A model generated the notes under the pieces. That model was not told the DNA's origin. It saw only the letters and a list, made by a program, of their open reading frames with translations, and ran no database searches. 64,000 nucleotides of DNA from Takakia lepidozioides. Lineage: Eukaryota; Plantae; Bryophyta. A program made the position numbers and the translations under genes. Position 1 is the stretch's first letter; each line of letters opens with the position of its first letter. The stretch covers positions 19,096,001 to 19,160,000 of the forward strand of contig CM060733.1 in NCBI GenBank assembly GCA_030704615.1, read 5' to 3'. Shown piece by piece: positions 24,733-62,542 of the stretch.

Positions 24733-24817
24733 CGAGAGAGAGAGAGAGAGAGAGACGGGGCTCCAGGGGTTGCTGCAGATAAGTTAAAGTTCAATCAGAG
24801 ATCTGATCGGAGTGAGT

Positions 24818-24848
<31 letters not shown>
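24733..24848. repeat. Two (GA)n microsatellite tracts upstream of the GATA gene
   Basis: GA dinucleotide runs at ~24733-24755 and ~24817-24848. Confidence 0.85.
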
Positions 24849-25666: not shown

Positions 25667-27335
25667 ATGTGGCAGGTGGCCTCGGGTTACAGTCGTTACA
25701 AGCATAATTGGCTCAAGGCATTGGAGGGACTCGGCGATGAGAGCACAAGCTGTCAGGGTGCCTGCATCAGCAACACGCAGAATTTGTTACGCTCTCCTTC
25801 CTTGTCAGCAGCTGTTGGATCAGTGAGAACAGGAGCGCAATGTGCGAGTTCCTATAGCGGATCTTGTGTGAGTGACGCACCCAGATTAATGGAAGACACT
25901 AGTTGTGAAACATCATGTGCTGTAGACTGCACATTATCGCTGGGCACTGCAGCATCGCGCCCTGACATACCCGCCCGCCTCTCACGTGCGGGATCTCCCG
26001 CACAGGAACCGTCTTGGCAGCTCTGCTCTAGGTCGGAGCAAGCTGATGCGGCCGTGCGTCGTGTATGTGAGCAGGAGAGGAGTGAACCGGGCATGTCGTG
26101 GGCAGCTAGCTGTGGTGGGATGGAACCCACCTTGCCGCCTGATTATTTTGGACCCCAGGTACACTTTTTGTCTAGCAGCCGGCAGCCAAGTGTCTGATGG
26201 CTTTCACGTAGGCAATGGCTGCCTCAAGAATCATGTTGTCTTCTTGTTCTTACTAGAAAAAATCTTCCTCAACTTCTTACATGTTTACAGTAGGCACGCC
26301 GGATAGACAGTGAGACAGGTAATGGGCGTGTTGCCCATGCTTACACACACAAGATTGTTAGTAGTTCATACAAAATTCAGGGAAGTAGGAAGATGAAAAT
26401 AATAGACAGTCTATTGGTGTCTAAGCAAGCGATTTTGGCACTTAAATGTGTCTCATTGTACTTGGTGGCACAGGTTGTCGCCTCAGAAAGGGGACCAAGG
26501 CCTAGTGATGGCGTTCAGAGGAGTGGATCAAGCAGATGGACCAATTTCTGTGTCCGCGTAACTGAGAAGGAGGCAGCCCCACGCACAGGACTATTAAGCA
26601 TGCTGGAGAAATATGATAGCATGCCTACTCGCAAGTCCTGGCTGGCCGCTGATTTGACACCGTCAACTGTTATGTCCGTGGAAGGAAAGCTCGACAGCAA
26701 GGCATCAGATCAATGCCTGCAGGAGAGCAGCAGTGTTGTGCGCATTTGCGCACATTGTGGCACCACCAAAACTCCATTGTGGAGAAATGGTCCCCAGGGC
26801 CCGAAGGTATGCTACTTCTTCACACTGTTGCACTGTCACTCCTTGCATATCATGTTACTGTGTGTGTGAGGCATCTGAATTCTCCCTCCATCTGTGCTGG
26901 TTGGGCCTACAGTCGCTCTGCAATGCGTGCGGCATCCGATTCAAAAAGGCTGGTCGACGCGCGGCTGCCAGTGCCACCTCTGAGCTACAAAACTGTCCGT
27001 CAGCTATGATGGGTGCAGCCAAGGCAGGGAAGCGGAAATTGGGAGGGATCGAGCATCAGTACTGGGTGTACCCACAGGATTCTCGGCCGCGCAAGCGAGG
27101 CAGGGCGCCCTCTTTGCGTCCCGACGATAGCCTTTTCAGTGGGGCGAGTTGTGTGACATGGCAGCCGTGCTTGTTGGCACCCTCTTCTCAAGTCTGCCCG
27201 CCACGCGAAATACACTCCACACCGCCGCCTGGATCTCAGCAAGAGAACAAGGCCCAAACGGGTGCCTTCTCTACTGAGGAAGAGGAGGGTGCCGTGCTGT
27301 TGATGGCACTTTCCTGTGGCATGGTACAGTCCTAA
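25667..27335 (+). CDS. B-class GATA transcription factor carrying both HAN and LLM motifs, 3 coding exons (25667-26158, 26474-26806, 26913-27335)
   Basis: C-X2-C-X18-C-X2-C finger CAHCGTTKTPLWRNGPQGPK|SLCNACG, split by a GT-AG intron. N-terminal VDCTLSLGT (HAN motif); C-terminal EEEEGAVLLMALSCG (LLM motif). Confidence 0.9.
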
Positions 27336-36193: not shown

Positions 36194-38039
36194 TTTAAAC
36201 AAGTGTTGACTTCACCGGGAAGTTTGTGACTTGGTGAGCTAGGCGCAAGCTAAATAGGAATCCAGAGTCAAAGAGTACTAGACAATGATCAATGGAAGGT
36301 CTGAAATCATGTCGATGCTGATCGATCACGAGTCAGGAAGGAGTCTAAGCTAGAGCTGGATATAATCCTCGAACCTCAGAGGATAGTTCACACAGTCCAC
36401 CGGTGAACATCAGAGGAACTCTGAACTTTGACACTTCTGTGAGGTCTCCACACCCCTCTCACATGCGCATCACTAACGACGCAGAAAGGGGTATGAACAA
36501 GGGCTCTCCAGAAGCAAATCCTAGATTATGAATAACCCGGGCCGGCCAGAGCAGCCCTTGCTGCCGAAATCCGGCAAAAGTACCGTAAGATGGCAGGAGT
36601 GCATTAAGTTTTTTCCTTATTTCTATTATCTTCCCTTTTTTCCTTACCTTTAATAAACTGGGGCCTTATTCCCTTCTACTAAAAAAACAAAAGAAAAACA
36701 AATGATCTGGGCCTCTGGCGTTTGCCTTTCTGACTTGGCGTGCCTGCCTGACCCTTTTTTCGCGTTGGAGGATCTATAATTTACTGGGCCCTGCCTTGGA
36801 AAGGGACTACCGTACTGTGCTGAGTCCACTTTCATGAATATCTTGAGTGGGCACAGGTTCCCTTGCCGCCCTTCCTTATGTGTTCCAGTAATGCATGAAT
36901 ATAGATACTATTGATATTAGATGAACTTTATAGATGAATGTCCACATTAGTACGTATAATCCAATGGTGGATGTCAATATGACATATCATATCTGTATGT
37001 GACATTACCACTTCCAATATCTAATTCCAAACAAAAATAAATAAATAAATTCCGAACATCTAAGATTGGATGTCTAGATGTCTTAGATTTTTTTGATTTT
37101 TTCTTAGATTACCAAACAAACGATCTCAAGATGTAGGATTTGAATTTTTCTTTATTGGACTGGCTTGGAATCCCTTCCTACCGAAATTTTTGCTGTCAAC
37201 TTTGCTCTATTTTGAAATGTTGTGACTGGGCTTACGAGGGTTAATAGTAGCAGCTTGTGAGGCCTTTCTCATATCTAAGTCACAAGGAAGGATCGATAAT
37301 TTTTTCTCAAAAACAGTAGTGCCGCATAGTTTTGTAAAAGACCCAAGTGGGGTGATTATACAATTACGGGATTTTGAGCACACTTTCCATGAAGAAGCTA
37401 TGCGAGCAAATTTTGTTCACAATTTCTTTGTAGTGATTATGATGATTTGGTGGACGGGAATGCTGAAGACACCGAGGATATTCCTGATATCTACCTTGAC
37501 CTTAGTGTAGACGAAACTATGTGTAGATGTCTTGCAAATCGGCACATTGAAAATGAGGAGATTCATGATCTCAATGTGGTGGACGAGGTAGATGGAGAAA
37601 TCATGATGATTAGCGAGGAAGATGAATATGATGACATTGTCGAGTCCATGCAGGGGCCTTTTGAAGTTACATGGAGCTCTCGCAAATAGATGCGACTTGT
37701 ATGAAGTTATTTCCGCACGCACATATTTGTATTGATTTTTGTTCAATGAAAATTTCGATTTTTTTCATCTTATTTTCATCTTATTACAAAAACATGAGAA
37801 GAGGCTTGCAAGCTTTTTGCTGGGATTTTTAGGAATTAGGCACTTTGGTCCCATAGTTTCCGAAGAATTAGGCCAAAATCTGAAAAATTCAAAGAATTGG
37901 CTAGGCACTTTCATTTTGAATTAATTATCGCCTAAACGGTTGTCCAGGGACAGTAATCTGAGAGGGTGGCTGCTAATGTGTGTGAGAAACTTAAGGAAAT
38001 CCAGGCAGCCAATAAGAGGCCACCATTTACCATTCCAGA

Positions 38040-38390
38040 TGTCAAGTTAAATAAGCACAGTGTGAAAACAGCTAGAATAAAACTAGTTATTTGTATTTAA
38101 CACTTGGATTTAGGTCAAGTGTTAAATCAGGTGTCAAGTTTAGTTTGACACCTGGTCCGTCTTATCTTCACGAGAGCGGCAGTCGCGCGGCTCATCTTTC
38201 TCGAGTTGAGCCTGCGCGACCGAGCTCCTGCATGCGTTTAGATCTGAGTGTACTCATGATGGGAGTGTAGGTTGTTGTGGGGTGGAGTCCCCATAGCTTG
38301 GGGTGCCCCTGGCTCGACTTCTATTATAAAGAGTGATAGCGATGGATTTCATATGTTTTGTGTCAACAGTGTCTCTATGCTTGTTTATCA
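38040..38390 (+). repeat. Terminal repeat A1 (351 bp; right-hand part of the LTR)
   Basis: Matches 48057-48407 with only two C/T differences found by eye. Begins TG and ends CA. Confidence 0.95.
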
Positions 38391-38406
38391 CTCGAGAAAG
38401 ATGAGC
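38390..38406 (+). promoter_or_regulatory. Putative self-priming primer-binding site
   Basis: ACTCGAGAAAGATGAGC at the LTR end is the exact reverse complement of 38190-38206 (GCTCATCTTTCTCGAGT). No TGG-type tRNA PBS directly follows the LTR. Confidence 0.7.
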
Positions 38407-39113
38407 GTTATCTAGTGTGTTGGTGCTAAGCTAGATACAATGTTTGTTTTAGCATTATTATAATATATATCTTGGGGCGGGAGTCCATCTGGCCCTGCTG
38501 TTTCAATGGTCTGTGCGCAAGAGTGTAGGCGAGTCTCTCTCTCTCTTCCCCGCCCCTTGTTCTCTCTTTCCCGCCCCTTACAAGCTCGCAAACCGCAAGT
38601 CGCTCCCTCGCTGGTCTGTGCGCAAGAGCATAGGTGCTGTACAGTCCATTAAAGGGAAAGGAAGGAAGAGTCTTAGAAAAGCCGCAAGAGGGAGGGAATT
38701 TGAGCAGTGGCACCATCGAGCGGAAGGGAGGCACGGACTTCGATTGTCGCACAGCATGTCGCTCATGATGGAAGTCCCGGTGTTTCGTAATCTCTGCAGT
38801 TCTGGAAAGTCTGGTAGCGGGAGTGCTTGGAATTTTGCTTTGTACCGTTTGAAATGGAGAATCTGAACGAAGCTGGACCCTACTGTTTTCGGACAAAAAC
38901 AGCGATCTCACCTACTTCTTCTAGCCTACACATAAGGCACTGTTTTGGGTGGGGCTTTCTATCCTTGGCTTGTTCATATTGGCAAGTAGTAAGGCAGCAG
39001 TAGCAAGCCATTTTCTCTGTAAAGAACAGAAGGTAGATTGTCTGTGGCCCCTAAGGAAAACTCTGGGAAGCTATGCCAAAGCATTCTGACGCTAGTGCAA
39101 CGTGCAAATGTCA

Positions 39114-39327
39114 CCTCAGAATCATGTTGCTGGGCCTCAAGACGATGTTGCCTAATGATATGCTAGACGGTCTGGCCCTGCTGTGACATTCGAACACGGC
39201 GTGCTCGCACTTGAGCCTGCACTCGCACCAGCGCTTGCAAGCACCGCAGGGTACTGGCAGCCTGCCTTCGCACTGTGTGGCCCGCACCAGTGCTTGCAGC
39301 CGCACCAACCCTTTCAGGATACGCAGG
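39114..39327 (-). pseudogene. Captured IQ67-domain (IQD) exon fragment, antisense within the retrotransposon leader
   Basis: Reads LRILKGLVRLQALVR(G)HTVRRQAASTLRCLQALVRVQAQVRARRVRMSQQGQ after correcting a 1-bp deletion; then has a TAG stop. Confidence 0.85.
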
Positions 39328-39769
39328 CAACCTCTTCTTGCCTGTTCAACGTCAGAACGCTCATCAGTAACATATGCACAAGCTGCATTTGATCCAGAGC
39401 TACACTCTGTACTGGAGCTGGCCAGTTATGTGCTGCCTGTTTGTCTCTGCTTTGTATAAGGATATGGGCATTGACGAAGAAATTGGTACTGTTTCTTAAG
39501 TTCTCGGGCTTTCTTCTCCTTACTGCTTGCTGGAGGTTATGACATTTCTTCATTTCCTTCCGTCTTCCTTGTCTCGATAGCAAGATTATGTTAGGCTGCA
39601 GTAATGCTTCTATGCACTTGGCAAGTAATGGTAAACCATCTTATTATGAGGCACATTATTGGTTGGAGGTCGAGAAGTCACAGGTGGACCAGCTCAAGGT
39701 CTGAAACCTTCCAAGGCTGTTTACAACATGACAAGAAAGCAGCAGAGATATACCTGCTTACTGGCAAAG

Positions 39770-39905
39770 AGTCAGTGCTAGGAGCTGCATTTGATCCAGA
39801 GCAACACTCTGTACTGGAGCTGGCCAGTGATGCTGAGCTGTTTGAACTATTGAACATTCTCTATGGACAAAGCCTGCTGAGCCTGCTGTTGAAGTCAGTG
39901 GCGCT
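39770..39905 (+). pseudogene. Second captured host-gene fragment (conserved plant unknown protein)
   Basis: AAFDPEQHSVLELASDAELFELLNILYGQSLLSLLLKSV resembles a conserved plant motif of the type DPEL..VLELATD.EL.EL..IL.G.S..SPLLKS (from memory). 46 bp of it is duplicated at 39381-39426. Confidence 0.5.
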
Positions 39906-40373
39906 AGAAGGAGGGAAGCCTATGGGGTGCTAAGCCTGTCGAGCAGGGGTGTGTACTGGTGATACGAGCGTGGGTCAGGGAGCTACTTGGTTCGAGCGCA
40001 AAGGATCAAAGCCCTGGAGTCAGCATAGTCGGGGAACGGCCTCGGGAACCCGTAGATAACCAGGGAACAGGGAACCTAGACAAGTATTAAAAAAAAAAAA
40101 TTAATTAAAAAAGAAAAGAAAAAAAGAAGGTGTTATGTTTAAAGAGCCTGGTTGGTCATATCTTTGTCAAATGAGCTCCGTTTGACTCAGTTTTTGGGGG
40201 GATAGCTGCAGAAAGGGGAAATCTACCTATCTAAACCTGGTTTCTGTTTTTGGGACTCTGCTAAAAATCTATGGAATTTTTAGAGTGTGAGTGTGCCATG
40301 AAAGATCCACAATCCTGTCTCTAGAACCTGTGCTGGTCTATATGAGAGACAAATTGGTGGATGTACTCCTTGC

Positions 40374-41107
40374 ATGGCTGGGGGAAATGAGGACGTAATT
40401 GAAGGGCAGGTCTCTTCTCTTAGTCTGTGCACACAAGGGGACAGGATTTATGTTTCCCAAGGAACTCAGACTGATTTGAGTGGAGAACAGTTGGACGAGT
40501 TGATTGCATACTGGGAGTCAGGCATTAGCAGTAGACAACAGACTGCTGTAGTTGGCATTGATGGCCTCAATATTGCCTTGGACAGTCAGAACTCTGTTGG
40601 AGCCAGTAGTTCTGCAGCTGTAGGTGAAATACCAATGTGGGTGAAAGCTAGGCTTGGAACACAGCCAAAGACAGTCCCGGGGACCAAGGTGTTCAGTCAC
40701 AAGGCCGTGGTGTACTGGAGCAGAGGGTTTGTGCAATCAGACATGGTTGCAGCCGGATACGCTCTGCACAGGGCAACCACGAGCGGGGGTTCATCAGCAA
40801 TGACATGTTTGTTGTGCGTGAAGGAGATGCAGTCATTCGCAATGAGGACACCCGCAACCGTCTCAAAGCTTTCGAGTTGAGAGACTATCAGACCCTACCT
40901 TTGTTTTCTTTAGTGTTTAGTGAGCGGGAGATAGGGGAGTATTGCTTTGTCTCTACCTGGCAGAAAGAGGAGGAGGGTTGGTTAGAGCGAGCTACTGTAG
41001 CTTGGGACAAGGTTAGTGGCAGGTTTCTGGACATAGATATACCTCCTACACCTTACCATCATGCAGAGCGAGGCACTTTGAGAGAAGTCTGGCAGTTGAT
41101 AGCATAG
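40374..41107 (+). CDS. Extra upstream ORF(s) of the retrotransposon, function unknown (overlapping ORFs 40374-40880 and 40805-41107)
   Basis: Two overlapping sense ORFs between the leader and gag, with protein-like composition; no family recognised. Confidence 0.4.
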
Positions 41108-41627
41108 ATCAGGATTAGATCTTGATTGGTCGGGCTTCTATTCTTCCCCTCCATCTCTGTACTATTTTCATTACCTTGTACTTGTAGTTGCCAAAGCCTC
41201 TCTTGGTGGAGGCCAGTCAGTCCGGGGTTTTGGGCTGGGATATTCTGCAGGATCAGCATTGCAGCTGGATTTTGGTGTAGGGGTGTTGATGTTTTGATTT
41301 CTTGTGTTTGGATCCCCCCCAACACCTGCATGCTTGACTGTGCGCCATGTTGGTTTTGTGTGGGCGCTTGCTTTCATAGGGATTAGGCCGGATTTGATCA
41401 CCGGTCAATCCTAGAGTATGCTGTCGGTGGTGAGGCTGGAGTGATGACCAGCAAGACCACCAGTGTTTCTTCTATGGTGAGGCTGGGTTGATGACCAGCC
41501 AACCATAGGAGTTCTTGCGGTGGATGCAAGTGCAGGTGCCCTGAGCCATTGGGATATGACCCTTAAAACTGCAACAGGTGCCCACCCGTGTCACTATTAG
41601 ATTAGTAGTAGAGCCTTATAGTGTCAC

Positions 41628-43105
41628 GTGGAGGAGGTGCACATTGTGAGTGTCATTACGGAGTTACCCAAGGGTGGTGAGGGGAGTACGGCTACAGGCA
41701 GTAACAGTGAGAGTGGGTTCACAAGACGAGGTATTCGGTTCAGACCACCTTCACCGCCACCCTCAATTACTGTAGAGTCAGACACAGACTCGGGGGCTTC
41801 ATCAACAGGTGTGCACTTTCATTCGCCATTGTTGTGGGACGACATGGAGGAGATGTATGGAGCTACCAAGAGGCCTCGTAGGTACTCTGGAGCTGTGGGC
41901 ACAATCGAGTTGGATGACTTTATCCAGGAGTTCGACAGCTGGTGTGATTTGCAGCAGATGCGCAATCCACAACTATTCACCCCATTCATGGCGTGGAAGG
42001 GACTGTTCCAGCATTTGGAAGGCCCGCCTATGGACGATTACCACGAGTTCAGGCGAGGACATGAAGCAGAGATTGAGGAGTGGAGGATGTATTGGTCACC
42101 TGACTACGTCTCCATTACTCGAGGCACGACGCGACCAGTAGCTGCATCAGTACCAATAGCTCCCACTGCCAGCACTAGTAGTGGAGCAGGTAGTGCTGGT
42201 ACTTCTGCAGGTGGTACCAGTTCAAAAGGTGCTACTACTCCTCCTGCCACAACTACAACACATGTGCCTAGATTCAACCCGGTGGTGGAGTTCTTCCAGG
42301 AGTTGCGGAGGAACTACCAAGGTGTACGGACAGAGAAGCTGCGAAGTTTGCAAGACTTCCAGCGCAAACCCAGTGAGAGCCTGCAAGAGGCGTACACTCG
42401 TATGAGGCGCTTGATAAGTGTGACCCAAGGGGTTACTGAAGCTCAGGCAATCCAGTTTTGGTATGGAATTGTGGACAAGGAGCTCAAGAGAAGGGTGCGA
42501 GATGCAACCCTGTTACAAGCAGCCCAACCCACATTAGCAGATGTGTTTCTGCTGGCTGAGCGGATTGAGCTCAACATGGTGGAGGAGCGAGTTGTTACAA
42601 TTGGATTTGGCAAGGACATGCCGGTACGGGGCACAGCTGTCAGCCCACAAGCACAAGGGACTGCCCAACAGCGTGGTCAGGGGGCAAGGTTGCCCAGCCC
42701 AAGTTCCATGGAGCTTACAGGGGACCTCAGGTGCAGAGGCCCGTGGCATCTTTTGCAGGCCAACAGCAACCAGGGGTGATATGTTGGACATGTGGAGGAC
42801 CCCATGTCAAGAGAGATTGCCCAGAGAGTGGCAGAAGGCCGGCACAAGCACAGCCTGCACAGTTGCAGTGTGGGCATTGTGGCAAGTATGGGCATGGAGA
42901 TGCCCAGTGTTATGACTTGCATCCTAAGTTGCACCCAGGCCAGTTCCAAGGGAACAATGGTGGCCGGGGGCGAGGTGGACCAGCCCAGAGAGGACGAGGT
43001 GGTCGGGCACGAGGTGCAGGCCAAAGGCAAGCTCAACATGGCCAAGGACGCGGAGGTCAGGGCGTTGATCAAGGCATGGCCAACCGGCTTCAGCAGAGCA
43101 GGATG
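41628..43105 (+). CDS. gag: Gag-like protein with two zinc knuckles and an RGG-rich tail (frame change at G-run 42680-42684)
   Basis: Capsid-like YSG...LDDFIQEF..W and FQRKPSESLQEAYTRMRRL. After the frame change: CWTCGGPHVKRDC, CGHCGKYGHGDAQC and GGRGRGG repeats. Confidence 0.8.
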
Positions 43106-43107
43106 AC

Positions 43108-44574
43108 ATGCATGGTACGGCGGAGTTGCCTGCCATGGTTGCTCACACTCCGTTGTGGGGTACGAGCAAGGATTTGCAGCAAGCTGCTGATGGACGGGTG
43201 CAACAAGCTTGGGAAGAAGCTTTTGTACCGTCAGGAGAGGAGGAGAGTGCGGTGATTGCACCAGGGCCACCTCAGTTGTCGCCATTGGACACCACACCTC
43301 TTGTGTGGCAGCGGCCGGATGAAGGCATTTGCCTTCTGGACTTGTTTGGCGGGATCAGCACCGGATTGGCTGCTGTGCTACAGGCAGGTGTGCGGGTAAG
43401 GCGTTACCTGTATGTGGAGAGGGATGAGACTGCACGACGCGTCTCACTGCGCCATGTGGCTCAGTTGGTACAGCAGTACCCTGACTTGTTGCCTGTGTCT
43501 GCAGTTCGTGGATACCAACAAGCCTTGCCAGCAGACATTTCCTTGTTGGGGGCGCAAGATTTGGAGCAGGTTGGCTCCATTGATCTGATAGTGGCAGGTT
43601 GGCCCTGCCAAGGGCATTCATCAGCCGGGCATGGCAATGGATTGCGAGACTCGAGGACGGGTCTGTTTTGGGAGATGGTGCGGATTTTGCGCTGCTTGCA
43701 GCTTCATCAAGCTATATCTCCAGCATACATCTTGGAGAATGTACCACTGATGGGTGATTCTCGGGCCAGGGTGATATCCAGTGTGCATCAAGTCCGGTCG
43801 TGGCTTGGGTCAGCAGTGTTGTTGGATGCAGCTGCAGTGGGGTCACGGGCTCATCGTCCACGACTATGGTGGACTAACTTGATGCCACCCGCACTGCTCA
43901 AGCGTGCATTTGATGGGGTGCAGCGGCCAGCACACCTCACCGTGGATGGCATTTTGGACACAGGAAGGCAGTCTCAACGTGTGAGACACGATGACCGTTC
44001 GCCTTTGGCAGTGGTCAACAGGGTGGGTCAACCACGAACAGCATTACCTACACTGCTCAGCTTCCCAGGATCCCATGCTTTTCGGGATGGTGGACCTGGC
44101 CTCCTGTGGGATGCTCAGTTGCAGCAATTAGTGGAGCCTAATGCCGACGAGCGAGAGCGGGCTATGGGGTTTTCCACTGGGACCACGGCGGTGCCTTCTC
44201 TTTCTGAGGCATCACGTCATCAGGTGTTGGGGCAAGCAATGGATCTCAATTGCTTGACCTGGATTGTCAGCTTGGCTATGGCTGAGCAACGTAGAGTGCG
44301 GAGTGCACTTCCCTTGACGGTCTCTCTGCCTACTGAGACGGTACAGGCAGCGAGTGGGGGCGAGCCGGTGAGGACCACGAGGTGTAGACATCCATGGCAC
44401 ATGTGGGAGGTGCTCGAGGTTCAGAGGGAGTTGGCAGCGAAGGCAGCTGTGATGGATGAGGTTGGGGATTCTTCTCGGGATGAGGAGGTTCTCAATGATG
44501 AGATGATGGGGCAGGATGAGGCCTTGTCATTGACTGAGCAGGAAGGGGGTACTGCTCAAGAGGCTGCAGCATAG
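43108..44574 (+). CDS. C5-cytosine DNA methyltransferase (DNMT) domain encoded by the retrotransposon, same frame as pol
   Basis: Ordered motifs: I LLDLFGGISTG, II YVERD, IV IDLIVAGWPCQGHS (catalytic PC at 43603-43608), VI YILENV, VIII RAHRPRLWWTN, IX ERERAMGF, X LGQAM. Confidence 0.93.
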   Translation: MHGTAELPAMVAHTPLWGTSKDLQQAADGRVQQAWEEAFVPSGEEESAVIAPGPPQLSPLDTTPLVWQRPDEGICLLDLFGGISTGLAAVLQAGVRVRRYLYVERDETARRVSLRHVAQLVQQYPDLLPVSAVRGYQQALPADISLLGAQDLEQVGSIDLIVAGWPCQGHSSAGHGNGLRDSRTGLFWEMVRILRCLQLHQAISPAYILENVPLMGDSRARVISSVHQVRSWLGSAVLLDAAAVGSRAHRPRLWWTNLMPPALLKRAFDGVQRPAHLTVDGILDTGRQSQRVRHDDRSPLAVVNRVGQPRTALPTLLSFPGSHAFRDGGPGLLWDAQLQQLVEPNADERERAMGFSTGTTAVPSLSEASRHQVLGQAMDLNCLTWIVSLAMAEQRRVRSALPLTVSLPTETVQAASGGEPVRTTRCRHPWHMWEVLEVQRELAAKAAVMDEVGDSSRDEEVLNDEMMGQDEALSLTEQEGGTAQEAAA

Positions 44575-47500
44575 CAACCACGGGACGCGTCCTCTACCTC
44601 TAAGCCCACTGGACTTAAGGTTGCAGTTACGGAGGACAATTGGGAGCCTGACATTGGACCCATTGTCACCGGAGGAGAGAGACGACGTATTTGGCGGTTC
44701 CTGAGGGCTTATAGGAATTGCTTTGCCTTCAGTTTGAAGGACTTGGGAGCACTGAAGGGTCAAGAGATCCGTATTGAGTTGGCCACTGACACGCCAATCT
44801 TTCGGAGACCCTATAAATACAGTGACATGGAGAGGTCTTTGATTCAGATGAGGACTCAAGATCTCTGGGAGGCAGGTTTGGTGGAGCTCTCTGGTGGAGA
44901 GTATGCTTCAGCCACAGTGATGCCAGCTAAGAAGGATGTCTATGGCAATTGGACGGAGAGACGTATGTGCGGTGATTACCGGCCTGTAAATCGTCAGACC
45001 AAGTCCGATAGGTATGCCATGCCAACACCAGAGGAGATCTTTGATGCCATTGGGCATTCCAAGGTCTTTAGCACGTTGGATTTACGATCCGGATATCACC
45101 AGTTGCCGATCAAGGAGGCGGATAAGCAAAAGACGGCATTCTGGGGGATCAATGAGCACGGGAAGGATTGCCTATACCAGTGGCGGTTCTTACCATTTGG
45201 GCTTAAAAACGCTCCCGCTGAGTTTCAAAGAGTCATGGACAGGATTCTAGCAGGGGTGGAGTTTGCTCGGTGCTACATAGATGACATCATCATCTTTAGT
45301 GCTACGGTGGAGGAGCATGAGAGACACCTTCAGGGGGTATTTGAGCGCTTGAGGACGCACGGATTGAAGTTACATCCGGGCAAGTGCAAGTTTTTCCACA
45401 ACCAGATTGAGTATCTGGGTCACATGATATATCCTGGAGGATTGGGGGTACAGCAGACTAAGGTAGAGTCCATTGCACAGGTTCCATGCCCCACGGATGT
45501 GAGCCGAGTTCGAGCTTTCATGGGGTTAGCAAACTATTACAGACGGTTTGTTAAGGGATTTAGTGCCATTGCAAAGGCTCTAACCAAGCTGACCAAGGTG
45601 GACCAGGAGTGGCAGTGGGAAGATGAGCAAGAACAAGCTTTTCAAGAGCTCAAGGCGAGGTTGACCTCGGCGCCCATCTTGAGACGACCTATCAGGGGGC
45701 GTCCTTTTCAGCTGCATACAGATTGGAGCATGCTGGGGCTTGGAGCGGTGCTCACACAGGTGGATGATGAGGGAAGAGAGTTCGTAGTGGCTTATGCTAG
45801 CCGCTCGAACAATGCTGCAGAGTCTAAGTATAGCTCATATGAGGGAGAATGCTTAGCTGCAGTGTGGGCCGTGGCACACTTCAGGTGCTATTTATACGGC
45901 AATCTCTTCACCCTTGTCACGGATCACCAACCACTCAAGTGGTTGATGAAGTCAGACAAGCTTACGGGGAAGCTTGCACGGTGGGCACTCATCCTTCAAG
46001 AGTATGACTTTCAGGTGGTGCATCGACCGGGTTTGGTCAATCGAAATGCAGATGGGTTGAGTCGTAATCCATGCACGAGCCAGCAGGATGACACTGGAGC
46101 TCGGTGGCATGGTGAGACGGACGAGGAGATGGTGCCCGGATGGCATGCATCTGCATTTCTGTGTATCTTGGCAACGGAAGGCCAGGTTGGACCTACAACA
46201 GGGATGACTGTAGATCAAGTGTCTGAGGACCCTGAGGCCAGCAATGAGCAGGGTGGCGCCAAAGATATACATGAGGATTCAGTTGTGTTGGACTACCTCC
46301 GCAGTGGAGACACGGCAGCCACTATGACTGCCAAGGAGAGGGATCGGATCCTACAACGAGCCAAGAGGTTCAGGTGGGAGGGGACACACCTGCTCCGAGT
46401 GTGGGAGGATGGTCGAGTGAGGATTGTGCCTCACCCAACACAGCGGGCACGGTTAGTGCGGCATGCCCATGAGGAGTTGGGGCATTTTGGGGTGCGACGC
46501 ACTCATAGTCTACTGCAGGGGCAGTATTGGTGGCGTGGTATGCACACAGAGGTGCAATAATTTGTGGCTAGGTGCATGGTGTGTGACAGGATGCGTGCTT
46601 CATTCAACGCCCCTACTCCACAATTGCACCCTCTTCCGATCATGGGATTGGGCTACAGGTGGAGTCTTGACTTCGCAGGGCCGTTGCCACTGACCATGCG
46701 CCACAACAAGTACGTGTTGGTGATGGTGGAGCACTTCTCCAAGTGGATTGAATTGGTTCCATTGCCTGATAAGGCTAGTGAGGGAGCTGCGTATGCATTC
46801 CTGGATTGTGTGCTTAGCCGATTCGGTGCTCCAGCTGAGGTACTCACGGACCAAGGGAGAGAGTTCTTGGGGGAGTTTCAGGCTTTGTGTGACAAGGCCT
46901 TGATAGACCACCGCACCACTTCTCGGGATCATCCTGAAGCCGATGGCTTGGCAGAGAGAGTTGTTCAGACAGTAAAGAGGGGTTTGCGCAAGTATGGCTT
47001 GCAGAAGGGACACCTAGGAGATTGGGACCTTCAGTTACCCTGGTTAGCCATGGGCTACAGGTTCAGCAAGCAAGCATCACTTGTCTCCTTCTCACCATAT
47101 TTTCTTCTCTTTGGCCGAGAGCCGGATTTGCCTACATCCATTCGCAGAGAAGCTGCTACAGTTCTTAACCTTGACGATCCGGACATGTGGGCACGTGCAT
47201 GTGAGCAGCGTGCAGAGTTGTTCAAGAGAGTCATGCCCATGGCTTTCGAGAACCTTGCCATTGCACAACACCGTGATACGTTGAGGTATGCTACCATACG
47301 TGGTGGGGGCTATCGTCCTGGGGTTCGGAGATTCAACCCTGGTGACTATGTCTATCTGCAGCAGACTGCTCCTACGACCCTGGATGTGACTGCAGGACGT
47401 GTTATTTTGAGGGTTCGAGAGGTCTTACCCTCAGGCGTCTTGGTCTTGGAGGGTCGGGATGACATAACTTGGAAGGACCATGTGCGTAATTGTGCGCCAT

Positions 47501-47709
47501 GTCACCTTCCGAATGTTGATGGCAGGATTGACCCAAACCTGGTAGTGGTATCTGCAGGTTTGAGGTGCATGTTGTGTGGGTCTGCTAAAGGGGCAGCCAC
47601 CATGCTGGTGTGCGATCGATGCTCTAGAGGTTGGCATATGGGATGCTTGACTCCACCTCTTGAGATGGTTCCGGATGGGGATTGGTTATGTCCACATTGC
47701 ATTGGATAG
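44575..47709 (+). CDS. pol: Pol: reverse transcriptase, RNase H, integrase and C-terminal PHD finger (in-frame TAA at 46558-46560)
   Basis: RT: RMCGDYR, LDLRSGYHQ, PFGLKNAP, YIDD. RNase H: LHTDWS, YSSYEGECLA, TDHQPL, NADGLSR. Integrase: HEELGH..C..C and D-D-E (LDFAG, TDQG, GLAER). PHD C4HC3 at 47566-47700. Confidence 0.95.
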
Positions 47710-47954
47710 TGGGAGTGGATACAACCATGGAAGGCTAACAAGAAACGCAAGGCCCAGCTACTAAGAGACCTTGAACACACGAGGTCCTGGCCCAAGTTCA
47801 CAGATTGCAAGATGACGACTAACGATGGGGCTACTCTTGTACCCGGCCTCTTGGTCTATAGAGTTTGAGTACAATAGGGACAGTGATAGAGGACTTAGTA
47901 CGGCTGTGGCTATTACATCTTGTAGGTATCTGGAGGTAGAGGGACCTATCCACC

Positions 47955-47969
47955 AGCTAGGGGGGCGAT
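47955..47969 (+). promoter_or_regulatory. Polypurine-tract-like sequence immediately before B1
   Basis: AGCTAGGGGGGCGAT directly precedes TGTGGC at 47970. Confidence 0.7.
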
Positions 47970-48407
47970 TGTGGCAGACTACTTTATTGTGCATATATGT
48001 GTGGTGTGGTTTGGACAGCGATGTAGTTGTGTAGCGATATGTATGCGCACGACAGCTGTTAAGTTAAATAAGCACAGTGTGAAAACAGCTAGAATAAAAT
48101 TAGTTATTTGTATTTAACACTTGGATTTAGGTCAAGTGTTAAATCAGGTGTCAAGTTTAGTTTGACACCTGGTCCGTCTTATCTTCACGAGAGCGGCAGT
48201 CGCGCGGCTCATCTTTCTCGAGTTGAGCCTGCGCGACCGAGCTCCTGCATGCGTTTAGATCTGAGTGTACTCATGATGGGAGTGTAGGTTGTTGTGGGGT
48301 GGAGTCCCCATAGCTTGGGGTGCCCCTGGCTCGACTTCTATTATAAAGAGTGATAGCGATGGATTTCATATGTTTTGTGTCAACAGTGTCTCTATGCTTG
48401 TTTATCA
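47970..48407 (+). repeat. Complete 438-bp LTR (B1 + GC + A2), TG...CA
   Basis: Starts just after the PPT with TG and ends TTTATCA, the same end that abuts the PBS in A1. Confidence 0.85.
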
Positions 48408-48408
48408 T

Positions 48409-48493
48409 TGTGGCAGATTACTTTATTGTGCATATATGTGTGGTGTGGTTTGGACAGCGATGTAGTTGTGTAGCGATATGTATGCGCACGACA
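48409..48493 (+). repeat. Terminal repeat B2 (85 bp; left-hand part of the LTR, displaced to the right end)
   Basis: Matches 47970-48054 except one C/T. Ends GACA and is followed by the CAGA TSD. Confidence 0.93.
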
Positions 48494-51239
48494 CAGACTT
48501 AGCCCATTCCCTAATATAAAAGCTTATGCCAAACGAGGATGATTTGTGTGATCATCATAGTGTACTTGGATGAGTATGATATTTGGATGATGGGCACTTG
48601 ATGCCCCTGCATGTGATTTGATTGGCCCACCCGTGAGGCTCCTCTTGCGAGAGATCCTTCCTTTCTAGCTTGGCGTGCTTTACTGGCTACTTCCCCGTTT
48701 TAACGCCCGGGCTCTAAGAGGAGAAGAGCATATCCCCCGGTAGAGGAATTGGTCTTACTGTGAGCACAACCCACATTCATGGGAGTTTTATGTTTTTTAA
48801 CATGGTCATAGAAATTCTAAGTTTTCAAAATGGAATAAAACCATAAGCTGGGTATAGAGGACTGGTGCATTTGTACGGTACATCTGCGCCAATTCAGCAA
48901 GGCGAAACCTTCGGTAGAGTAGCCAGAAACCCTAAACCTATAGCGGCGGCGACGAATTTCGCATTGAGAAATGACATGTGATATGGGCACAAACCTAAGC
49001 ATCGGTGGGTTTCGCATTGAGAAACCCTTAGTGGTATAGCTTGAGTCAAAACTTTGTATATGAAATCCCATCCCCCAACAATCCAACATCCAAAAAGAAT
49101 GGGTGGGGGCTTTAAAAGTGACATTCATCCTTTTAGTTGCAATGTGATTTCTTCTCAGGCTAGTTTCGCCATGCGAAATTATCCATGGGTGAGGACCCTA
49201 ATTTCACGAAAATTTGGTGAAAATTCGGGGAATATGCCCTTGTGTACCCAACCTCTAATGCAGTAGGTGATACTAGAATGGTAATTTGATCTTTCTTGTT
49301 AATATATCTAGCTCTATGAAATTTTTGTTTCTCCTCTTGGGGATAGTTTTACCCACCGCCTTGGAGCACCGCCTACAACAAAGAGGGGCTTAGGGTTTCA
49401 AAGGAAATGAATGATAGCTGCCACGCCAACCGCCTTGCTTTTCATCCAGCCCACGAATAGCAGGTCCTTAGAAGTACACCGACGCTTTGGCAGTGGCGGC
49501 GCTTCTCTGTTTTAGTTGATACTCCATCTTACATCACGCTATGCATACCAACCCCCTGCCTGAAGAAGGTCAGACAACAGGAAAGAGGATGGGTTGGAAA
49601 GTCCGGGAGGGCCGCTCACTATTTTTCTCCCGCAAACTCTAAGTATGGGAGTTTTCCATGAAGGTCAGTGCATGCATGGATGGATGGCAATAACAGAGTA
49701 GATCGCGCAGTTGACACCAATGCCTTTTGTATAATAGAGGGCCGTGAAACTATGCTGGACTTGGCCAATGGCCCCTCATTATGAGAACCATGGGTCCAAG
49801 GCAGCTCCACGACAGAGTGATCAAGCATGCTCCAAGAGTGTCTGCAGCCTTTTAGGCTCAGCCAGTACTGCAGGCATCCTGAGTGATGTCCAGAAAAGCA
49901 GCTAAACGAGTAACACCAGTGTATCAGTGTATCAGCCCACACACATCGTAAACACGTTATCATCTACCGGGGCTCTCTTATGGTACATATCGGAGCAGTT
50001 GTTGTTTCCTGAGCTGTTTGCACTGGATAGCTAGACGTCTCCAAACTTTGCACCTTCAAGGGGAATCCGAACTATAAATTCTCCATTTTGATAAAGTATC
50101 CTACCACGTCCGGCGGTTGCTCAGCAAAAGGATCCAGCGAGGCAATAACAACGACAACATGGGATTTGATACTTTCAAACGTGTCCGACCAAACTGAAGT
50201 ACCTTGCGTTTATTTGTCTCTCGGTAGAAAGTATAGATCACATGTTTACATACTCTCGCCACAACAAGAACCAGCTCACATCAGATGAGAAATCTTTGCT
50301 CTGACATCGACAACCATTGAAATAGTAATACGCCTTGAGAGTCCAGCCACCACTGCAATCTCTGGCTTCGCTCATTCCTTCGAGAGCACCTTCCGCGAGG
50401 TGAAGCGGTGCCACAATGTGTGAATGCAGCATTGCTCCATATGCAGTTCTTCTCCTTGTAATATCGTTACAAGTCGCCAGATGCAAATCCGATGTGCTAG
50501 CTAAGCCTACCAAGAACTTGACACGAGAACCCATAATTCGCTTGATATAAACAATTCTCCATCTCACCAATGTGGATCAGCACAGGAGAGGAGGGTCGAG
50601 TATGGAGGGGACTAAGAGGGTGATACGAAATTATCCCACTTCTTCCGAAGTCTTCTAACCTCGGTTCCCCTTTTCGGCCTGACGATACCGAAGGAGCTAT
50701 AATGGTGAATGTACATATATGCATAAAAAATGGGCTCCAAGAAACGCCGTCACAAGCATCCGTGAGGACTTAGAATTCTCAAGCCTCTGCTAATTTTCCC
50801 GCTATAGTTAGCCAACCACCAGCAAGAAGTGATATATTGAGGGTTACGAGCCAATTTTGTAGCCCACCCGATGGTTTAGACATGGCTGGATTTAGTGAAG
50901 ACAACAGACATAGCTGTACCTGTGGTACATTGTGAGGCGTGAAATTGTTTCGATTGAGTGCTGCTAGAGCAAATTAGGAAGGAGAGGCGTGCGGGGATGC
51001 CAATGAACTGCATCAGAAAATGGACTTTGTATTCAGGTTGCCCGCACATCGGGCAATTGAATATCTCCTTTTCCTCCCTGCATCTGTTTATTGTTCAAAG
51101 GTAGACTCCCCACTCTGAGTTTAAAATTCAGTCAAGTGCCGAAGGTAGGTAGGACCTTCCGTTCATTCCTTCAGGTCCTAAAGGTCAGGCAGCCGAGAGA
51201 GAATGAGAAGAAGACAGAAACCAATAGAAAGTAGGGAGA

Positions 51240-53621: not shown

Positions 53622-56205
53622 TTACGTGACAGCGGTGACAGATGATACACAAGAGATGAAGTCTGGATCTTCCTGCAGTCTCTTCGCAACATCGGGAGGC
53701 GGTTTGAAGTTTATTTCTATTGTGCCATTGCTGTGCTCTGGAAAAAAACCGATCAAAGGATTGACGGTAGACTTCTTGGCGTAGAAGACAGTATAGGCAA
53801 AAGCCGGGCCCCATCCGAAGTCACAACGTTCAAGACTTGGACAAACAACCATTCTTTTTTTTCTTTCTCCATCATGGTAAAATAAGACTTGATTTGTTCA
53901 GCGGTGAGATCTGCAATCGTCATGTGCAGCAGGTTTGCAGCATATGAGATTCCATTTCCCAAAAGCTCTCCCACAGTGGTGACTGCCACTGCGGTAAGAA
54001 TTGCATTTCCAAAATAATTCGTAGAGAGCTCTGGCCACCGTTTCCTGCAATCCACGCTATTGAAGTATCGAGTTTCCTCCATATCTGCAAGCAATCGAGC
54101 CCGCGTAATGGCCCTCCAGATATTGGCACCGATCACTACATAAGCACTGTACGTAGACCCATCTGGTGAATCTTCCAGCGCTTTATCTTTGAGCTTCGTT
54201 TGCATCGGTAGATCAAAAAGAATGTGCAAAGTTGTTGGGTCTAGGGCCTGAGTCACGATAGGAGGACCCTTTGAATCCTTGACGTAACGATTACCCACCA
54301 ACGGTAACCTCGTACTAAACGCCTTTCGAAAGGTTTCTGTCCAATCTGAGTTGTGTGACTCTTATGCCAATTTGATTAGATTGGCTCGCGAGCTAAAATT
54401 GGGAGGAAGGGAGATGCGTTCCCCACGGGCGAGCTCTGCCCGTGACTTGATAAATTGCCACACTGTCATTCCATCTGCGATTCCATGGAAGTAAACATAA
54501 CCAAGTACATAGCCGCCACACTTGAGATGAGTGATCTGCGGTTTTAAAAAAGAATCGATATATCACTCCGAAACTCGAATTGGGTCATGTGCATTGCGAT
54601 CAAAAGTGCTAATCTACTATTGCACATGTCATGTGTCATAACCTTCACACCTGAAATGGAAGCCATTTAATGTCGCGTAGAAGCTACCTGGGCGCCGAAA
54701 AGAGGACCGCGGGTTTGCCAGGTACCGAAGTCCTTCCCATGGATTGGGATGGGTTGGACAAAGTGTTGATACATGTCAGCCATGTTGTAGTTACTTAGCA
54801 CCGGCACAGTGATGGGAGCTGAAGCCTCAACAAACTTCACCCCTGCATCGTTACAGTCCACGGCTGTCTCCCCGTCCTCCCCGTCTTCGTCTTGTACAAA
54901 CTGGCCTGCATGGTCTCCCAACGTCTACTAAGCTCTATGCAAGTATCTACCCAATATTAGTGGGTTAGCTTCCCTTGCATGCCTAGCTAGCTTCACACAT
55001 GAACATCAAGCCTAGTGGCCAACAACAAAGAGAACCCACACCCCTCCTAGAGATCCCAATGCATGGTTAGCTCTCTAGGGGTTAGATCTTTCCACTCTTA
55101 AGCCAAAAGACAGCATAGATAAAAATGACAACTGCTTGGACCTCTTTGCCACTAAGGAGGGTTAGTCTCTCTCTTTCCCAAGCTCCTACTACTCCTTGGG
55201 TAGCCGGCATGGTCTCCCAACGTCTACTAAGCTCTATGCAAGTATCTACCCAATATTAGTGGGTTAGCTTCCCTTGCATGCCTAGCTAGCTTCACACATG
55301 AACATCAAGCCTAGTGGCCAACAACAAAGAGAACCCACACCCCTCCTAGAGATCCCAATGCATGGTTAGCTCTCTAGGGGTTAGATCTTTCCACTCTTAA
55401 GCCAAAAGACAGCATAGATAAAAATGACAACTGCTTGGACCTCTTTGCCACTAAGGAGGGTTAGTCTCTCTCTTTCCCAAGCTCCTACTACTCCTTGGGT
55501 AGCCAAGACCTTCATCCTTCTCTTTGTTAATCCGCGTTCATCCTTCTACTGCTCATCCAGTTTGCCTTGAGCTTGTTGTCTTTGTCACTGAGCTTGTTGA
55601 CTCTTTCTCCGGCACACTCTATACTCTACTTGCCAAATCCAAGTGTGTTTCTCATCACCTCTTTTCCCCTTACAAACCTTGCACCCATCTGAAATGCAGG
55701 CTTTTAAGGTTAATTTGTAATTTTACAAATCATGTTTGTATGAACCTTCCTGTTCTGACCTTGTTTTTGTTTTGATTGACATTACAAGCATGGCTTCAAA
55801 CTCAACCAATTGGGCTTCATGTGGGGGGATGCAACAAAGCTGGCAACTTTGCCACTTTAGGCAGTCTAGTTTCCCCGAAGCCTAGATACCAAAGCTGGCA
55901 TGACAGACTTGGATAATCGCATCTAGATAGTACTGTAGCCGCCATGTAGTCGGTGCACTCCTGAAGGGTGGATCATGATTTACCTGCAAGTGGGTAGTAC
56001 TCTGCCAGCGCTCTTGAGAAACTCTCCCTTAGTCTTCCATTGAACTACTCCACACTGAGGTCTTCTTCAGCGCTTGCGTCGAACAGGAACACCTTTCTGA
56101 GGGGAGGAGCTCTCAGAATGCGGAGATCGAATTATAAGTGGGAGCCGCTGCAACTCCCGCCTCTGGTCAGGACGTGGCGTGGGAACCACCATGGTTTTTG
56201 ATAGG
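53622..56205 (-). pseudogene. BAHD acyltransferase pseudogene (duplicate)
   Basis: Near-identical to 34472-36193, but with a TCA>TAA stop near 54362, a frameshifting deletion near 53840, an altered/deleted start region, and a ~940-bp insertion in intron 1. Confidence 0.88.
54908..55504. repeat. Tandem duplication, 299-bp period, 2 copies
   Basis: gcatggtctcccaacgtctactaag...ctccttgggtagcc at 54908-55205 and 55207-55504; no differences seen by eye. Confidence 0.93.
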
Positions 56206-60472: not shown

Positions 60473-62002
60473 CTATCGGAACCGAGCTGAAACTTGATCG
60501 TACCGGGGAACATGTACCACATCACCCCATGAAGCCATAGTTAGAGGCGTGGAAATCATCTTTCCAGCCACTGCAGCAATGTCTTGCAAAGTCAAGGACT
60601 GCACACCCTCAATGAATACTTCTACTGGCTTGCGATGTCCGTATGTCAAAATTTGCCGTCCAATATCTTCAGTGACCACAACCCGTGACTCCAAATTCAT
60701 CAAGACTGCTGAAATGGTTGAGTTCTTAGCACGCTGTAACTCAACTTGTGTCACTTTGCCTGGTGTTGCGACCTCTATGAACTCCTTGGCAGCTAGATCA
60801 ACGAGATGGGGAACAAAATCGGAGCCTGAGGTGGCGTGGATCCCGAAAAGGCCAGTATCATTGTAGATGCTGTTAAACGCAGTAAATGACTGAACTTGCT
60901 CATACCTATTGAGTACCCGTGTGTACAAGCGAGAGTACATTCCTTTGCCAGGACCCCCTGCGGAAAATGAACCTCCTCCTCCTAAAAGCACCTGCAAGAC
61001 TGTGGCAGCGAACGATTCCTTCTCATTGCGCCAACCTCCCGGAAATTCAAATGCAACAGCAACGTGTGTCTTGGGGGAGTCTGCAGCCTGGCGCCAGTCA
61101 CCTCCCACGTACTCTGTGGCGACAGGAGCTGATTGAGGGACTGCGGCCATATCTGAGAGCAGAGGTTCAGCCACCGACAGGAGCTCCTCATGATCCACAC
61201 CAGACGCTGCCAGCACTATCCGAGGAGCAGTGTAATTCTCGGCTACAAACTCTCGAAGTATTTCACCATTCAATCTCTCAATTGCGGGTAGAGGAGCCAA
61301 AAGGGGGTGAGCAAGCGCTCCTACATAACCTGCTGAATGCAGGGCCTCCAATATCAAACACTGTGGATTGTTGGCCACCTCAGCAATCTCTGCTTTTACT
61401 TTCTCCTTCTGCTCCTGAACTTCCCATTCATTGAAAAGAGGGTTTCGCACACTGTCAATCAGAAGCTCCACCATCTCAGGCATGAAGGTTTTGATCGTAT
61501 CTCCAGTATAACACATCTGCTCGCGTGATGCGTTGGCCATAACGTTTCCCCCGATCGCCTCAACCTCCCGAACCAGCCGGAAATGCGATCGATTGCTGGT
61601 GCTCTTGAATGCCATACGCTCAAGCATATGTGAGGCTCCAGAGGTGGCTGGAGTTTCATCCTTCGAGCCGGAATCAATATAGATTCCGATGGTTGAGCTA
61701 GGGCCAGGAGTATCCTCTGTAGCAATCTTGAGACCATTGGCAAGAGTGCTTATCTTTGTCTGTGCTGGCTTGATGTCATCAGGTAAAGGAGGTGGCAGAC
61801 GCACTCCAGGCAGGGACTCATACAGAGGCGGGATGTCTGGTGGTGGCAACTCTCCCACCAGCCATGTCAGAAGCCCTGTGCTCGACGGTGTGGGCTGCAC
61901 AGCAGGCACCGCCTGTCGAGCTGCACTTGTGCGAATCAAGCGCCGGCCGCCATAGCCCACAAGCTTGGCAAGGCGCTGCCGCCCAAGCCCGACCCTAACC
62001 AT
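60473..62002 (-). CDS. MPPA: Mitochondrial processing peptidase alpha subunit (M16 family), intronless, 509 aa from ATG 62002
   Basis: Arg-rich presequence; TLANGLKIA; GASHMLERMAF (inactive HxxEH variant); ASREQM; glycine-rich loop GGGGSFSAGGPGKGMYSRLY; EDIGRQILTYG. Confidence 0.95.
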   Translation of the reverse strand: MVRVGLGRQRLAKLVGYGGRRLIRTSAARQAVPAVQPTPSSTGLLTWLVGELPPPDIPPLYESLPGVRLPPPLPDDIKPAQTKISTLANGLKIATEDTPGPSSTIGIYIDSGSKDETPATSGASHMLERMAFKSTSNRSHFRLVREVEAIGGNVMANASREQMCYTGDTIKTFMPEMVELLIDSVRNPLFNEWEVQEQKEKVKAEIAEVANNPQCLILEALHSAGYVGALAHPLLAPLPAIERLNGEILREFVAENYTAPRIVLAASGVDHEELLSVAEPLLSDMAAVPQSAPVATEYVGGDWRQAADSPKTHVAVAFEFPGGWRNEKESFAATVLQVLLGGGGSFSAGGPGKGMYSRLYTRVLNRYEQVQSFTAFNSIYNDTGLFGIHATSGSDFVPHLVDLAAKEFIEVATPGKVTQVELQRAKNSTISAVLMNLESRVVVTEDIGRQILTYGHRKPVEVFIEGVQSLTLQDIAAVAGKMISTPLTMASWGDVVHVPRYDQVSARFR

Positions 62003-62542
62003 GGCCAGACCCCACAGAACAGATCGCACACAAAATAACCGAGAGACGAATCCACACAAAACCCAACTAAACCCGAGTGAGGAAGACGCCAATCTCCTCT
62101 GTTCCTGCTTTAGGGTATGGATTTCCAGACTTGTCACATAAACCCTCTCTTGAACCTTCAGCCTCTCCCACCCTCTCTGTAGTGAAAAACTTAGGTCAAG
62201 GAGCCCACACCTACAGTTTACTGCCTCACTCCAGTCTTACTCCCAGTTCAAAGAAGGAAAGGATTGTCCACCACATATTCTCCAATTTCCATCAACTGAG
62301 TTATGGGAGCACTAGATTCATTATTCCTTGAGGCATGAAGCTGAGGACATTATAACACTTGGTTGCACTCTCGAACAACTTGGAGGCTACAAAAACTTAA
62401 AAGTAGCAGTGACATCACAAAGATCAGACATTGAACTAGTATCCTAATAGTCCTAGCTACATATATGATTTACACTTGGTGCGCCGCCATACAATGGTTA
62501 CAGACCATCAGATCTCTGCACCAAAAGTAAAATGTGGTGGCT

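Follow-up and report, generated by a model that had tools for sequence, protein, structure and literature searches.

The 64,000-nucleotide stretch of Takakia lepidozioides DNA analysed here (the window) contains a 10.5-kb Ty3/Gypsy element, which extends from 38040 to 48493 between two CAGA copies and carries an unbroken DNMT3-type cytosine-5 methyltransferase (DNMT) domain at 43318..44292; all features of the element described below are on the forward strand. Judging from sequence comparisons, we favor, with modest confidence, the view that the element is a defective member of a Ty3/Gypsy family of bryophytes in which the DNMT ends the Gag-protease frame, Pol would be made by readthrough, the cDNA is likely methylated, and insertion would follow a circle route. 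That the domain is owned by the element and maintained by selection is almost certain.

The domain lies in an open frame of 501 codons (43069-44574) that is closed by a TAG at 44572-44574. A Pfam scan of this ORF identified DNA_methylase (E 2.8e-13; 50.4 bits, cut-off 22), with no second family and no accessory domain. The C5 methyltransferase motifs from I to X are in linear, canonical order, and the PC, ENV, and RxR signatures are all present. Under the motif numbers that we take to apply, these are motif I (DLFGGI, 43339-43356), motif II (YVERD, 43411-43425), motif IV (WPCQ, 43600-43611), motif VI (ENV, 43735-43743), motif VIII (RAHRPRLWW, 43846-43872), motif IX (ERERAMGF, 44149-44172), and motif X (44227-44244), which reads LGQAMD throughout the family versus LGRSWS in DNMT3A. 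The top 16 matches in a sequence search of the PDB were all DNMT3A (best E 2.2e-11), followed by DRM-type enzymes at E 2.5e-6 or weaker and M.HhaI at 3e-4. An AlphaFold2 model of the domain had a mean pLDDT of 83, and a Foldseek search with this model also placed DNMT3A at the top (E 3e-18, TM 0.68/0.77). By sequence and predicted fold, the domain is a C5 cytosine methyltransferase related to DNMT3, its nearest class among solved structures; the nearest solved proteins, DNMT3A and DNMT3B, are only ~21% identical to it, which indicates that it was not captured recently from a gene of this kind.

A protein search retrieved 228 relatives of similar length and 66 longer ones. The named relatives among the matches listed come from Calypogeia, Marchantia, Riccia, and Sphagnum, with identities of up to about 75-76%, and no named Klebsormidium sequences are among them. 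Copies in Marchantia polymorpha are annotated as hypothetical genes (e.g., Mp_4g09160 and Mp_8g17980). For comparisons among loci we used the best 80 of 94 metagenome loci together with L081, the one distant match (35%) in a search of viral_contigs. The loci that are long enough have the order gag-protease-DNMT-RT-RH-INT-PHD, and the DNMT domain occupies an equivalent position in liverwort and Sphagnum relatives. In a second organism, a single contig spans 43091-47974 unbroken (264 differences and 9 gaps), and the linkage from DNMT to PHD is therefore not private to the window. The summed depth of sister contigs, which is not a copy number, points to a large family.

The dN/dS of the DNMT domain, estimated by the Nei-Gojobori method, was 0.13, 0.11, 0.09, and 0.17 for four between-family pairs that were unsaturated. 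Four pairs that included the window and were close to saturation gave 0.08-0.20, and L001-L002 gave 0.15; the pairs of the window with L002, L038, and L039 were saturated in dS and left out. Three pairs of decayed Sphagnum-type sister copies gave 0.37-0.59. ENV, which was outside the locus search patterns, is present in 39/39 near-full domains; the conservation counts for PC and RxR are biased because the search patterns used both. As judged from these substitution patterns, the domain is under purifying selection. The initial annotation had described a complete, intronless cytosine-5 methyltransferase between gag and RT, with ordered motifs, no internal stop, and no accessory domains, as an enzyme belonging to the element, and our data agree with it on each of these points. 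The Pfam search and the dN/dS comparison among copies that it had proposed returned the DNA_methylase match and the between-family values of 0.09-0.17 given above. It had named absence from sister copies, neutral drift, or origin as a recent host fragment as grounds for giving up this view, and these are contradicted by the shared position in liverwort and Sphagnum elements, the low dN/dS, and the distance from DNMT3A.

A quick, midpoint-rooted tree of 62 element domains, built without host DNMTs and with long branches joining at the base, placed the window in a 17-row clade (SH-aLRT 100) with element domains of Calypogeia, Marchantia, and Sphagnum. This clade is nested in a 43-row clade (96) in which full-length, unbroken members stop after the DNMT. 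Outside the 43-row clade, in distant clades, are elements whose DNMT is fused to RT, and a clade of its own (100) comprises the elements that carry the DNMT between RNase H and integrase. The latter arrangement was seen in P0163, P0166, P0167, P0170-P0173, P0175, and P0176, and P0172 has a further C-terminal extension beyond the PHD finger. The presence of the same DNMT type between RNase H and integrase indicates that it moved within Pol or was captured twice. The Sphagnum element domains, which are 65-70% identical to that of the window, are nested among the liverwort ones, reflecting either old paralogous lineages or horizontal transfer. The database record of P0020 describes it as a DNA methyltransferase from a metagenome-assembled genome of a bacterium (Obscuribacterales); its cluster contains a 1359-aa gag-protease-DNMT protein, and P0020 is likely a misbinned eukaryotic retroelement.

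The initial annotation had also placed the methyltransferase in the same frame as RT. The frame is indeed shared, and the RT frame (44575-46560) starts immediately 3' of the TAG; however, the methyltransferase is not part of the RT ORF, since the stop is conserved and makes it the C-terminus of the Gag-protease ORF. Our stop survey covered 82 sequences (81 loci and the window), and in 54 of them, representing 43 distinct copies, the DNMT is followed by an RT start; the remaining sequences end or are truncated before that point. An in-frame stop was found 14-26 codons 5' of the RT start in 42 of the 43 copies (30 TAG and 12 TAA). CAR-YY directly follows the stop in 40/42, with the full CARYYA in 6, and the two stops that lack CAR-YY are one C-to-T step away from the pattern. 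Among the decay stops of the same loci, which served as a control, CAR-YY follows 3/363 and CARYYA follows 0/363; we therefore rejected decay as the origin of the TAG. Because the copies are related, they represent about five or six lineages and not 43 events.

The stop and its context (44572..44580) read TAG CAA CCA in the window and L002, with CTA in L066; the corresponding sequences are TAG CAG TTA in L038 and L039, TAG CAA TCA in L042, and TAR CAA CCC in Sphagnum-type copies. The largest family (36/43 copies) has mostly CAR-YY-C, with an in-frame ATG located two codons beyond the stop. The residues encoded after the stop vary (QP, QL, or QS) and the linkers around it share little else across lineages, but the nucleotide pattern is constant between lineages whose DNMTs are only 48-70% alike. 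In L038, 1369 and 1047 open codons in one frame are split only by TAG CAG TTA, and many database proteins of 1230-1450 aa have their C-terminus 75-130 residues past the DNMT. According to the published passages on tobacco mosaic virus, CAR-YYA is the 3' hexamer essential for readthrough (PMC2754532); the window stop and its hexamer match the type I signal UAG-CAR-YYA exactly, although, unlike the viral signal, the putative readthrough stop of the window parts Gag-protease-DNMT from RT. These sequence patterns make it highly probable that Pol is made by readthrough of the conserved UAG-CAR-YYA stop. The env-like genes of SIRE1 make similar use of readthrough.

The DDE integrase and the order PR-RT-RH-INT, in which the protease is that of relatives and is deleted in the window copy, assign the element to Ty3/Gypsy, as do the TG...CA ends, the polypurine tract, and the short target duplication. 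Two full, equal LTRs at both ends are not present; the repeats are instead arranged as A...B-A-B in the window, L047, and L069 (3' part). The gag/RT placement given in the initial annotation was correct, but the loss of the protease, the TAG as a conserved family feature, and the unusual terminal repeats had been overlooked. Downstream of the left repeat is ~1.7 kb of 5' sequence with an A-rich tract at its end (38407..40131), which is thinly covered by sister contigs and may be an insertion or a minor-subfamily leader; no flanking duplication was found around it. A broken ORF of ~250 codons upstream of gag (40302-41107) is deeply covered by sister contigs, showed no Pfam family and no match among the related loci, and may represent an additional, lineage-specific gene of the element.

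The gag gene (41622..43096) contains two zinc-knuckle-like motifs and a frame break near 42680; the Retrotrans_gag match (E 0.002) is below the cut-off, and identity to Marchantia P0123 is 52-63%, split over two frames. At 43091..43096 there is a deletion scar with 6-bp microhomology, where ~385 codons including the aspartic protease are gone (size from P0123). Sister contigs depart from the window on either side of the scar, leaving loose ends, and a protease query from the Marchantia relative found no match in the window (best E 0.57). The pol gene (44575..47709), delimited by Pfam and ORF calls, encodes RT, RNase H, integrase (H2C2 and rve), and a C-terminal PHD finger; it has an in-frame stop at 46558-46560 within the H2C2 domain, where the corresponding frame is open in L038 and L042. 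With the protease lost, gag broken, and the integrase stopped, the window copy cannot move alone, and it may have been mobilized in trans as a defective derivative. The insertion is young, since only 3/436 bases differ between A1/A2 and B1/B2. Between 43000 and 44760, the window copy differs from the sister-contig majority at ~80/1761 positions. None of the 40 of these 80 differences that were listed is in the stop or hexamer, and the 20 listed inside the DNMT (10 synonymous and 10 nonsynonymous) include none in the seven motifs. The CpG observed/expected ratio is ~0.5 both inside and outside the element and thus does not indicate element-specific methylation.

The element ends consist of repeat A1 (38040..38390; 351 bp, TG...CA), the internal region, a polypurine tract directly 5' of B1 (47957..47969) that is kept in relatives, B1 (47970..48054; 85 bp, TG...CA), GC, A2 (48057..48407), T, and B2 (48409..48493). 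A1 and A2 differ at 2 positions in 351 bp and B1 and B2 at 1, and the CAGA target-site duplication is at 38036..38039 and 48494..48497. L047 has the same A...B-A-B layout with an unrelated A, a mostly unrelated B, and an AAGG duplication, and L069 retains the B-A-B portion. A 4-bp target duplication was found in 7/8 copies with both ends and a 5-bp duplication in 0/8. The B1/A2 joint (48049..48062), a palindrome of the form GACA-GC-TGT(C/T) and the predicted integrase cut site on the circle, is shared with L003, L042, and L047 as GACA-GC-TGTC, even where the repeats are otherwise unlike. Central variants occur in L038 and L069, the GT variant of L038 being an imperfect palindrome. The A2/B2 joint reads CA-T-TG in the window and CA-AT-TG in L047. 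In eleven loci, B is not followed by A-B; in one of these, L020, the 3' flank matches that of L069, which retains B-A-B, at 95%, showing that loss by B-B recombination or assembly collapse occurs. Short-read assemblies can collapse or misjoin repeats of this kind. A rearranged copy at L044:12545-13441 has an inverted internal piece and parts of A before B and retains the 4-bp duplication. We rejected the reading of A and B as solo LTRs from two different elements, one nested in the other, given that one 4-bp duplication brackets A1-B2 and the joint is conserved.

A1 is not followed by the TGG of a tRNA-type primer site. The next 16 nt (38391..38406) are instead complementary over 16/16 positions to a segment inside A1 (38190..38205), which is likely the self-primer and the predicted 5' end of the transcript. 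The same relation, with different letters, was found in L047 and L048, and the shuffle maxima for the three copies were 8-10 (9 in the window). The complement clearly exceeded the shuffle maximum in 3/18 A1 copies; most of the 15 others, all decayed, had 10 nt or fewer. Folding from the A1-internal segment gave z values of -5.4 and -2.9, which are not independent tests because the start points were chosen by us. A self-priming site likely replaces the tRNA primer site in this family. According to the published text on Tf1 and Tj1, the sequence following the 5' repeat of these elements can likewise pair with a stretch farther upstream within the repeat, and Tj1 also has a stop at the gag end; in contrast to the split repeats and predicted RNA start of the window element, Tf1 and Tj1 have ordinary LTRs, and no methyltransferase is described in that text (PMC4600332).

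A DNMT domain in a Gypsy element is not itself new, and the high novelty that the initial annotation had attached to the domain does not hold, since DNMT3-bearing Gypsy elements precede it in the literature (PMC5890265). In the text compared, KnitGypsy-Dnmt3 of Klebsormidium nitens (de Mendoza et al. 2018) has a Ka/Ks below 0.2, DIRS-like repeats, and the DNMT in the RT ORF; it produced no methylation in yeast, a result that its authors call inconclusive (PMC5890265). The window family resembles it in having an intronless DNMT3-related domain under purifying selection and DIRS-like repeats, with A1 and A2 around the ORFs and two B repeats around A2. However, its host is a land plant and not an alga, and a stop parts the DNMT from RT and RNase H in 42/43 distinct copies, whereas in KnitGypsy-Dnmt3 they share one ORF. 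The target duplication, joint palindrome, and priming given here for the window family are absent from the text compared, beyond which our analysis adds the conserved stop, the end anatomy with its palindrome and 4-bp duplication, and the likely self-priming site. The survey in that study included 7 embryophytes, as far as its text gives them, and neither a liverwort nor Sphagnum (PMC5890265). A 2026 preprint, in the part available, has the phrase 'streptophytes (Gypsy-DNMT3)' without detail, and our search, which covered mostly open-access literature, found no report of the bryophyte family, its readthrough stop, or the circle route. The A1-B1-A2-B2 split direct repeats are also described for PAT, TOC1, and Ngaro, which use a tyrosine recombinase, unlike the window element with its DDE integrase, TG/CA ends, and 4-bp duplication (PMC4157794, from the published excerpt). 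We rejected a DIRS-type element, since an rve integrase is present and no tyrosine recombinase was found in the element ORFs of at least 100 codons or in 5 scanned ORFs of L038.

From this anatomy we propose the following cycle. The RNA would start inside A1 and prime its own reverse transcription, and the DNMT, carried on the Gag-protease product, would enter particles in amounts similar to those of Gag. The LTR start would be marked at B by the polypurine tract that precedes B1, and the LTR end at A by the primer site, making B+A the true LTR; these positions lead us to expect a linear cDNA of the form BA-internal-BA. Its ends would join to give a two-LTR circle, with the slightly variable A2/B2 joint as the end-joining scar. 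The integrase would then cut the B/A palindrome 3' of CA on each strand, producing CA-3' ends with 2-nt overhangs, and the cut circle would be inserted as A-internal-B-A-B with a 4-bp duplication. Such a cut would explain the TG/CA termini, the loss of the outer GC, and the 4-bp duplication. In the published text on foamy virus, the integrase likewise cuts a palindrome at the 2-LTR circle junction to give processed ends; however, that cut restores ordinary linear ends, whereas the cut predicted for the window family is internal and would lead to integration of a permuted circle (PMC1180852). We regard the case for integrase cutting of the circle at the B/A palindrome, which is based on the joint sequences, as evenly balanced. 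Being made with every Gag and present in many copies per particle, the DNMT would be in the best position to methylate the cDNA or the circle, either ahead of insertion or during it, and a new copy would then resemble host heterochromatin. The cDNA is, by a modest degree, the probable main target of the predicted enzyme. The fullest version of this scheme is tentative and somewhat doubtful as a whole: a widespread, unannotated land-plant Gypsy clade with a self-primed cDNA circle, a DDE integrase that normally inserts by cutting this circle at the palindrome, and a DNMT3 that a leaky stop keeps at Gag level and that methylates the circle in the particle would make pre-methylated insertions and may add to the liverwort and Sphagnum methylome.

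Other roles for the enzyme were weighed against methylation of the cDNA. It might work chiefly in trans, with chromosomal targets such as other copies, competing elements, or genes of the host, if a protease-released, Gag-level protein reached the nucleus. The conserved stop sets the domain on the abundant side, apart from RT, and the cis argument of de Mendoza et al., according to the relevant part of the peer-review file, relied on DNMT and RT in one ORF, which is not the case in the bryophyte clade. However, selection on the element would favor an effect on its own copies, and the domain itself lacks a chromatin-reading module, the PHD finger belonging to the integrase; we consider trans action rather unlikely. 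Retention of the domain for binding and not catalysis, as a nucleic-acid chaperone, decoy, or SAM sink, would fit the unusual motif X and the inactivity of the algal relative in yeast, but the text reporting the latter states that human DNMT3B likewise failed in the same assay (PMC5890265). PC, ENV, and RxR are also retained across families that are ~50% alike, the PC and RxR counts being subject to the search bias noted above, and a binding role appears distinctly unlikely.

With the role of the domain left as we prefer it, the stop could be a hard one, with Pol translated from a spliced transcript, from an RNA that has its own start, or after re-initiation. In the Sphagnum-type family, a T-rich stretch ending in AG before the stop resembles a plant splice acceptor, and an ATG follows two codons after the stop; the window, L002, L038, L039, and L042 have no nearby ATG, and the first Met of the window is more than 80 codons downstream. 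Twelve of the 42 stops are TAA, though possibly through decay, and the conserved letters are those of the hexamer essential for TMV readthrough in the source cited above (PMC2754532); we consider a hard stop unlikely. Finally, the domain could be read as a fragment of a host methyltransferase gene, captured recently and drifting neutrally, only if its shared position in liverwort and moss elements and the low between-family dN/dS were set aside. DNMT3 is a host gene in mosses, in the portion of the literature consulted (PMC6453930), and the decayed Sphagnum-type copies do show the higher dN/dS values; the window nevertheless groups at SH-aLRT 100 with element domains of Calypogeia, Marchantia, and Sphagnum, in a tree without host DNMT3, and we give host capture almost no credence.

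Land plants such as tracheophytes have been said, in the published passage, to lack transposon-borne methyltransferases (PMC6338049). Copies of the present family sit in the model liverwort Marchantia polymorpha, for which genetics and methylomes exist, and the role of such enzymes becomes testable there. The published cis argument also changes, since it is Gag, and not RT, to which the enzyme is linked. Circles are usually regarded as dead ends for LTR elements; if the circle model is true, this family would be a natural case of circles as the integrating form. LTR finders that require two equal ends likely miss or mis-bound these elements.

Several features were observed in the window outside the element. 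An intronless mitochondrial processing peptidase alpha gene is on the reverse strand at 60473-62236; its best named matches are from Riccia, Marchantia, Ceratodon, and Calypogeia (75-76%), with Brassica at 62% and other named vascular plants at 70% or less, values that point to a bryophyte as the most likely host. A segment is duplicated at 31.4-36.2 kb and 51.0-56.2 kb with 91-99% identity and an internal inversion, and each copy has a partial BAHD-type transferase gene. Two head-to-tail 299-bp copies at 54904-55501 are 100% identical, representing either a very recent duplication or an assembly artefact. A GATA zinc-finger gene at 24788-27335 shows a frame change within the finger region near 26.8 kb.
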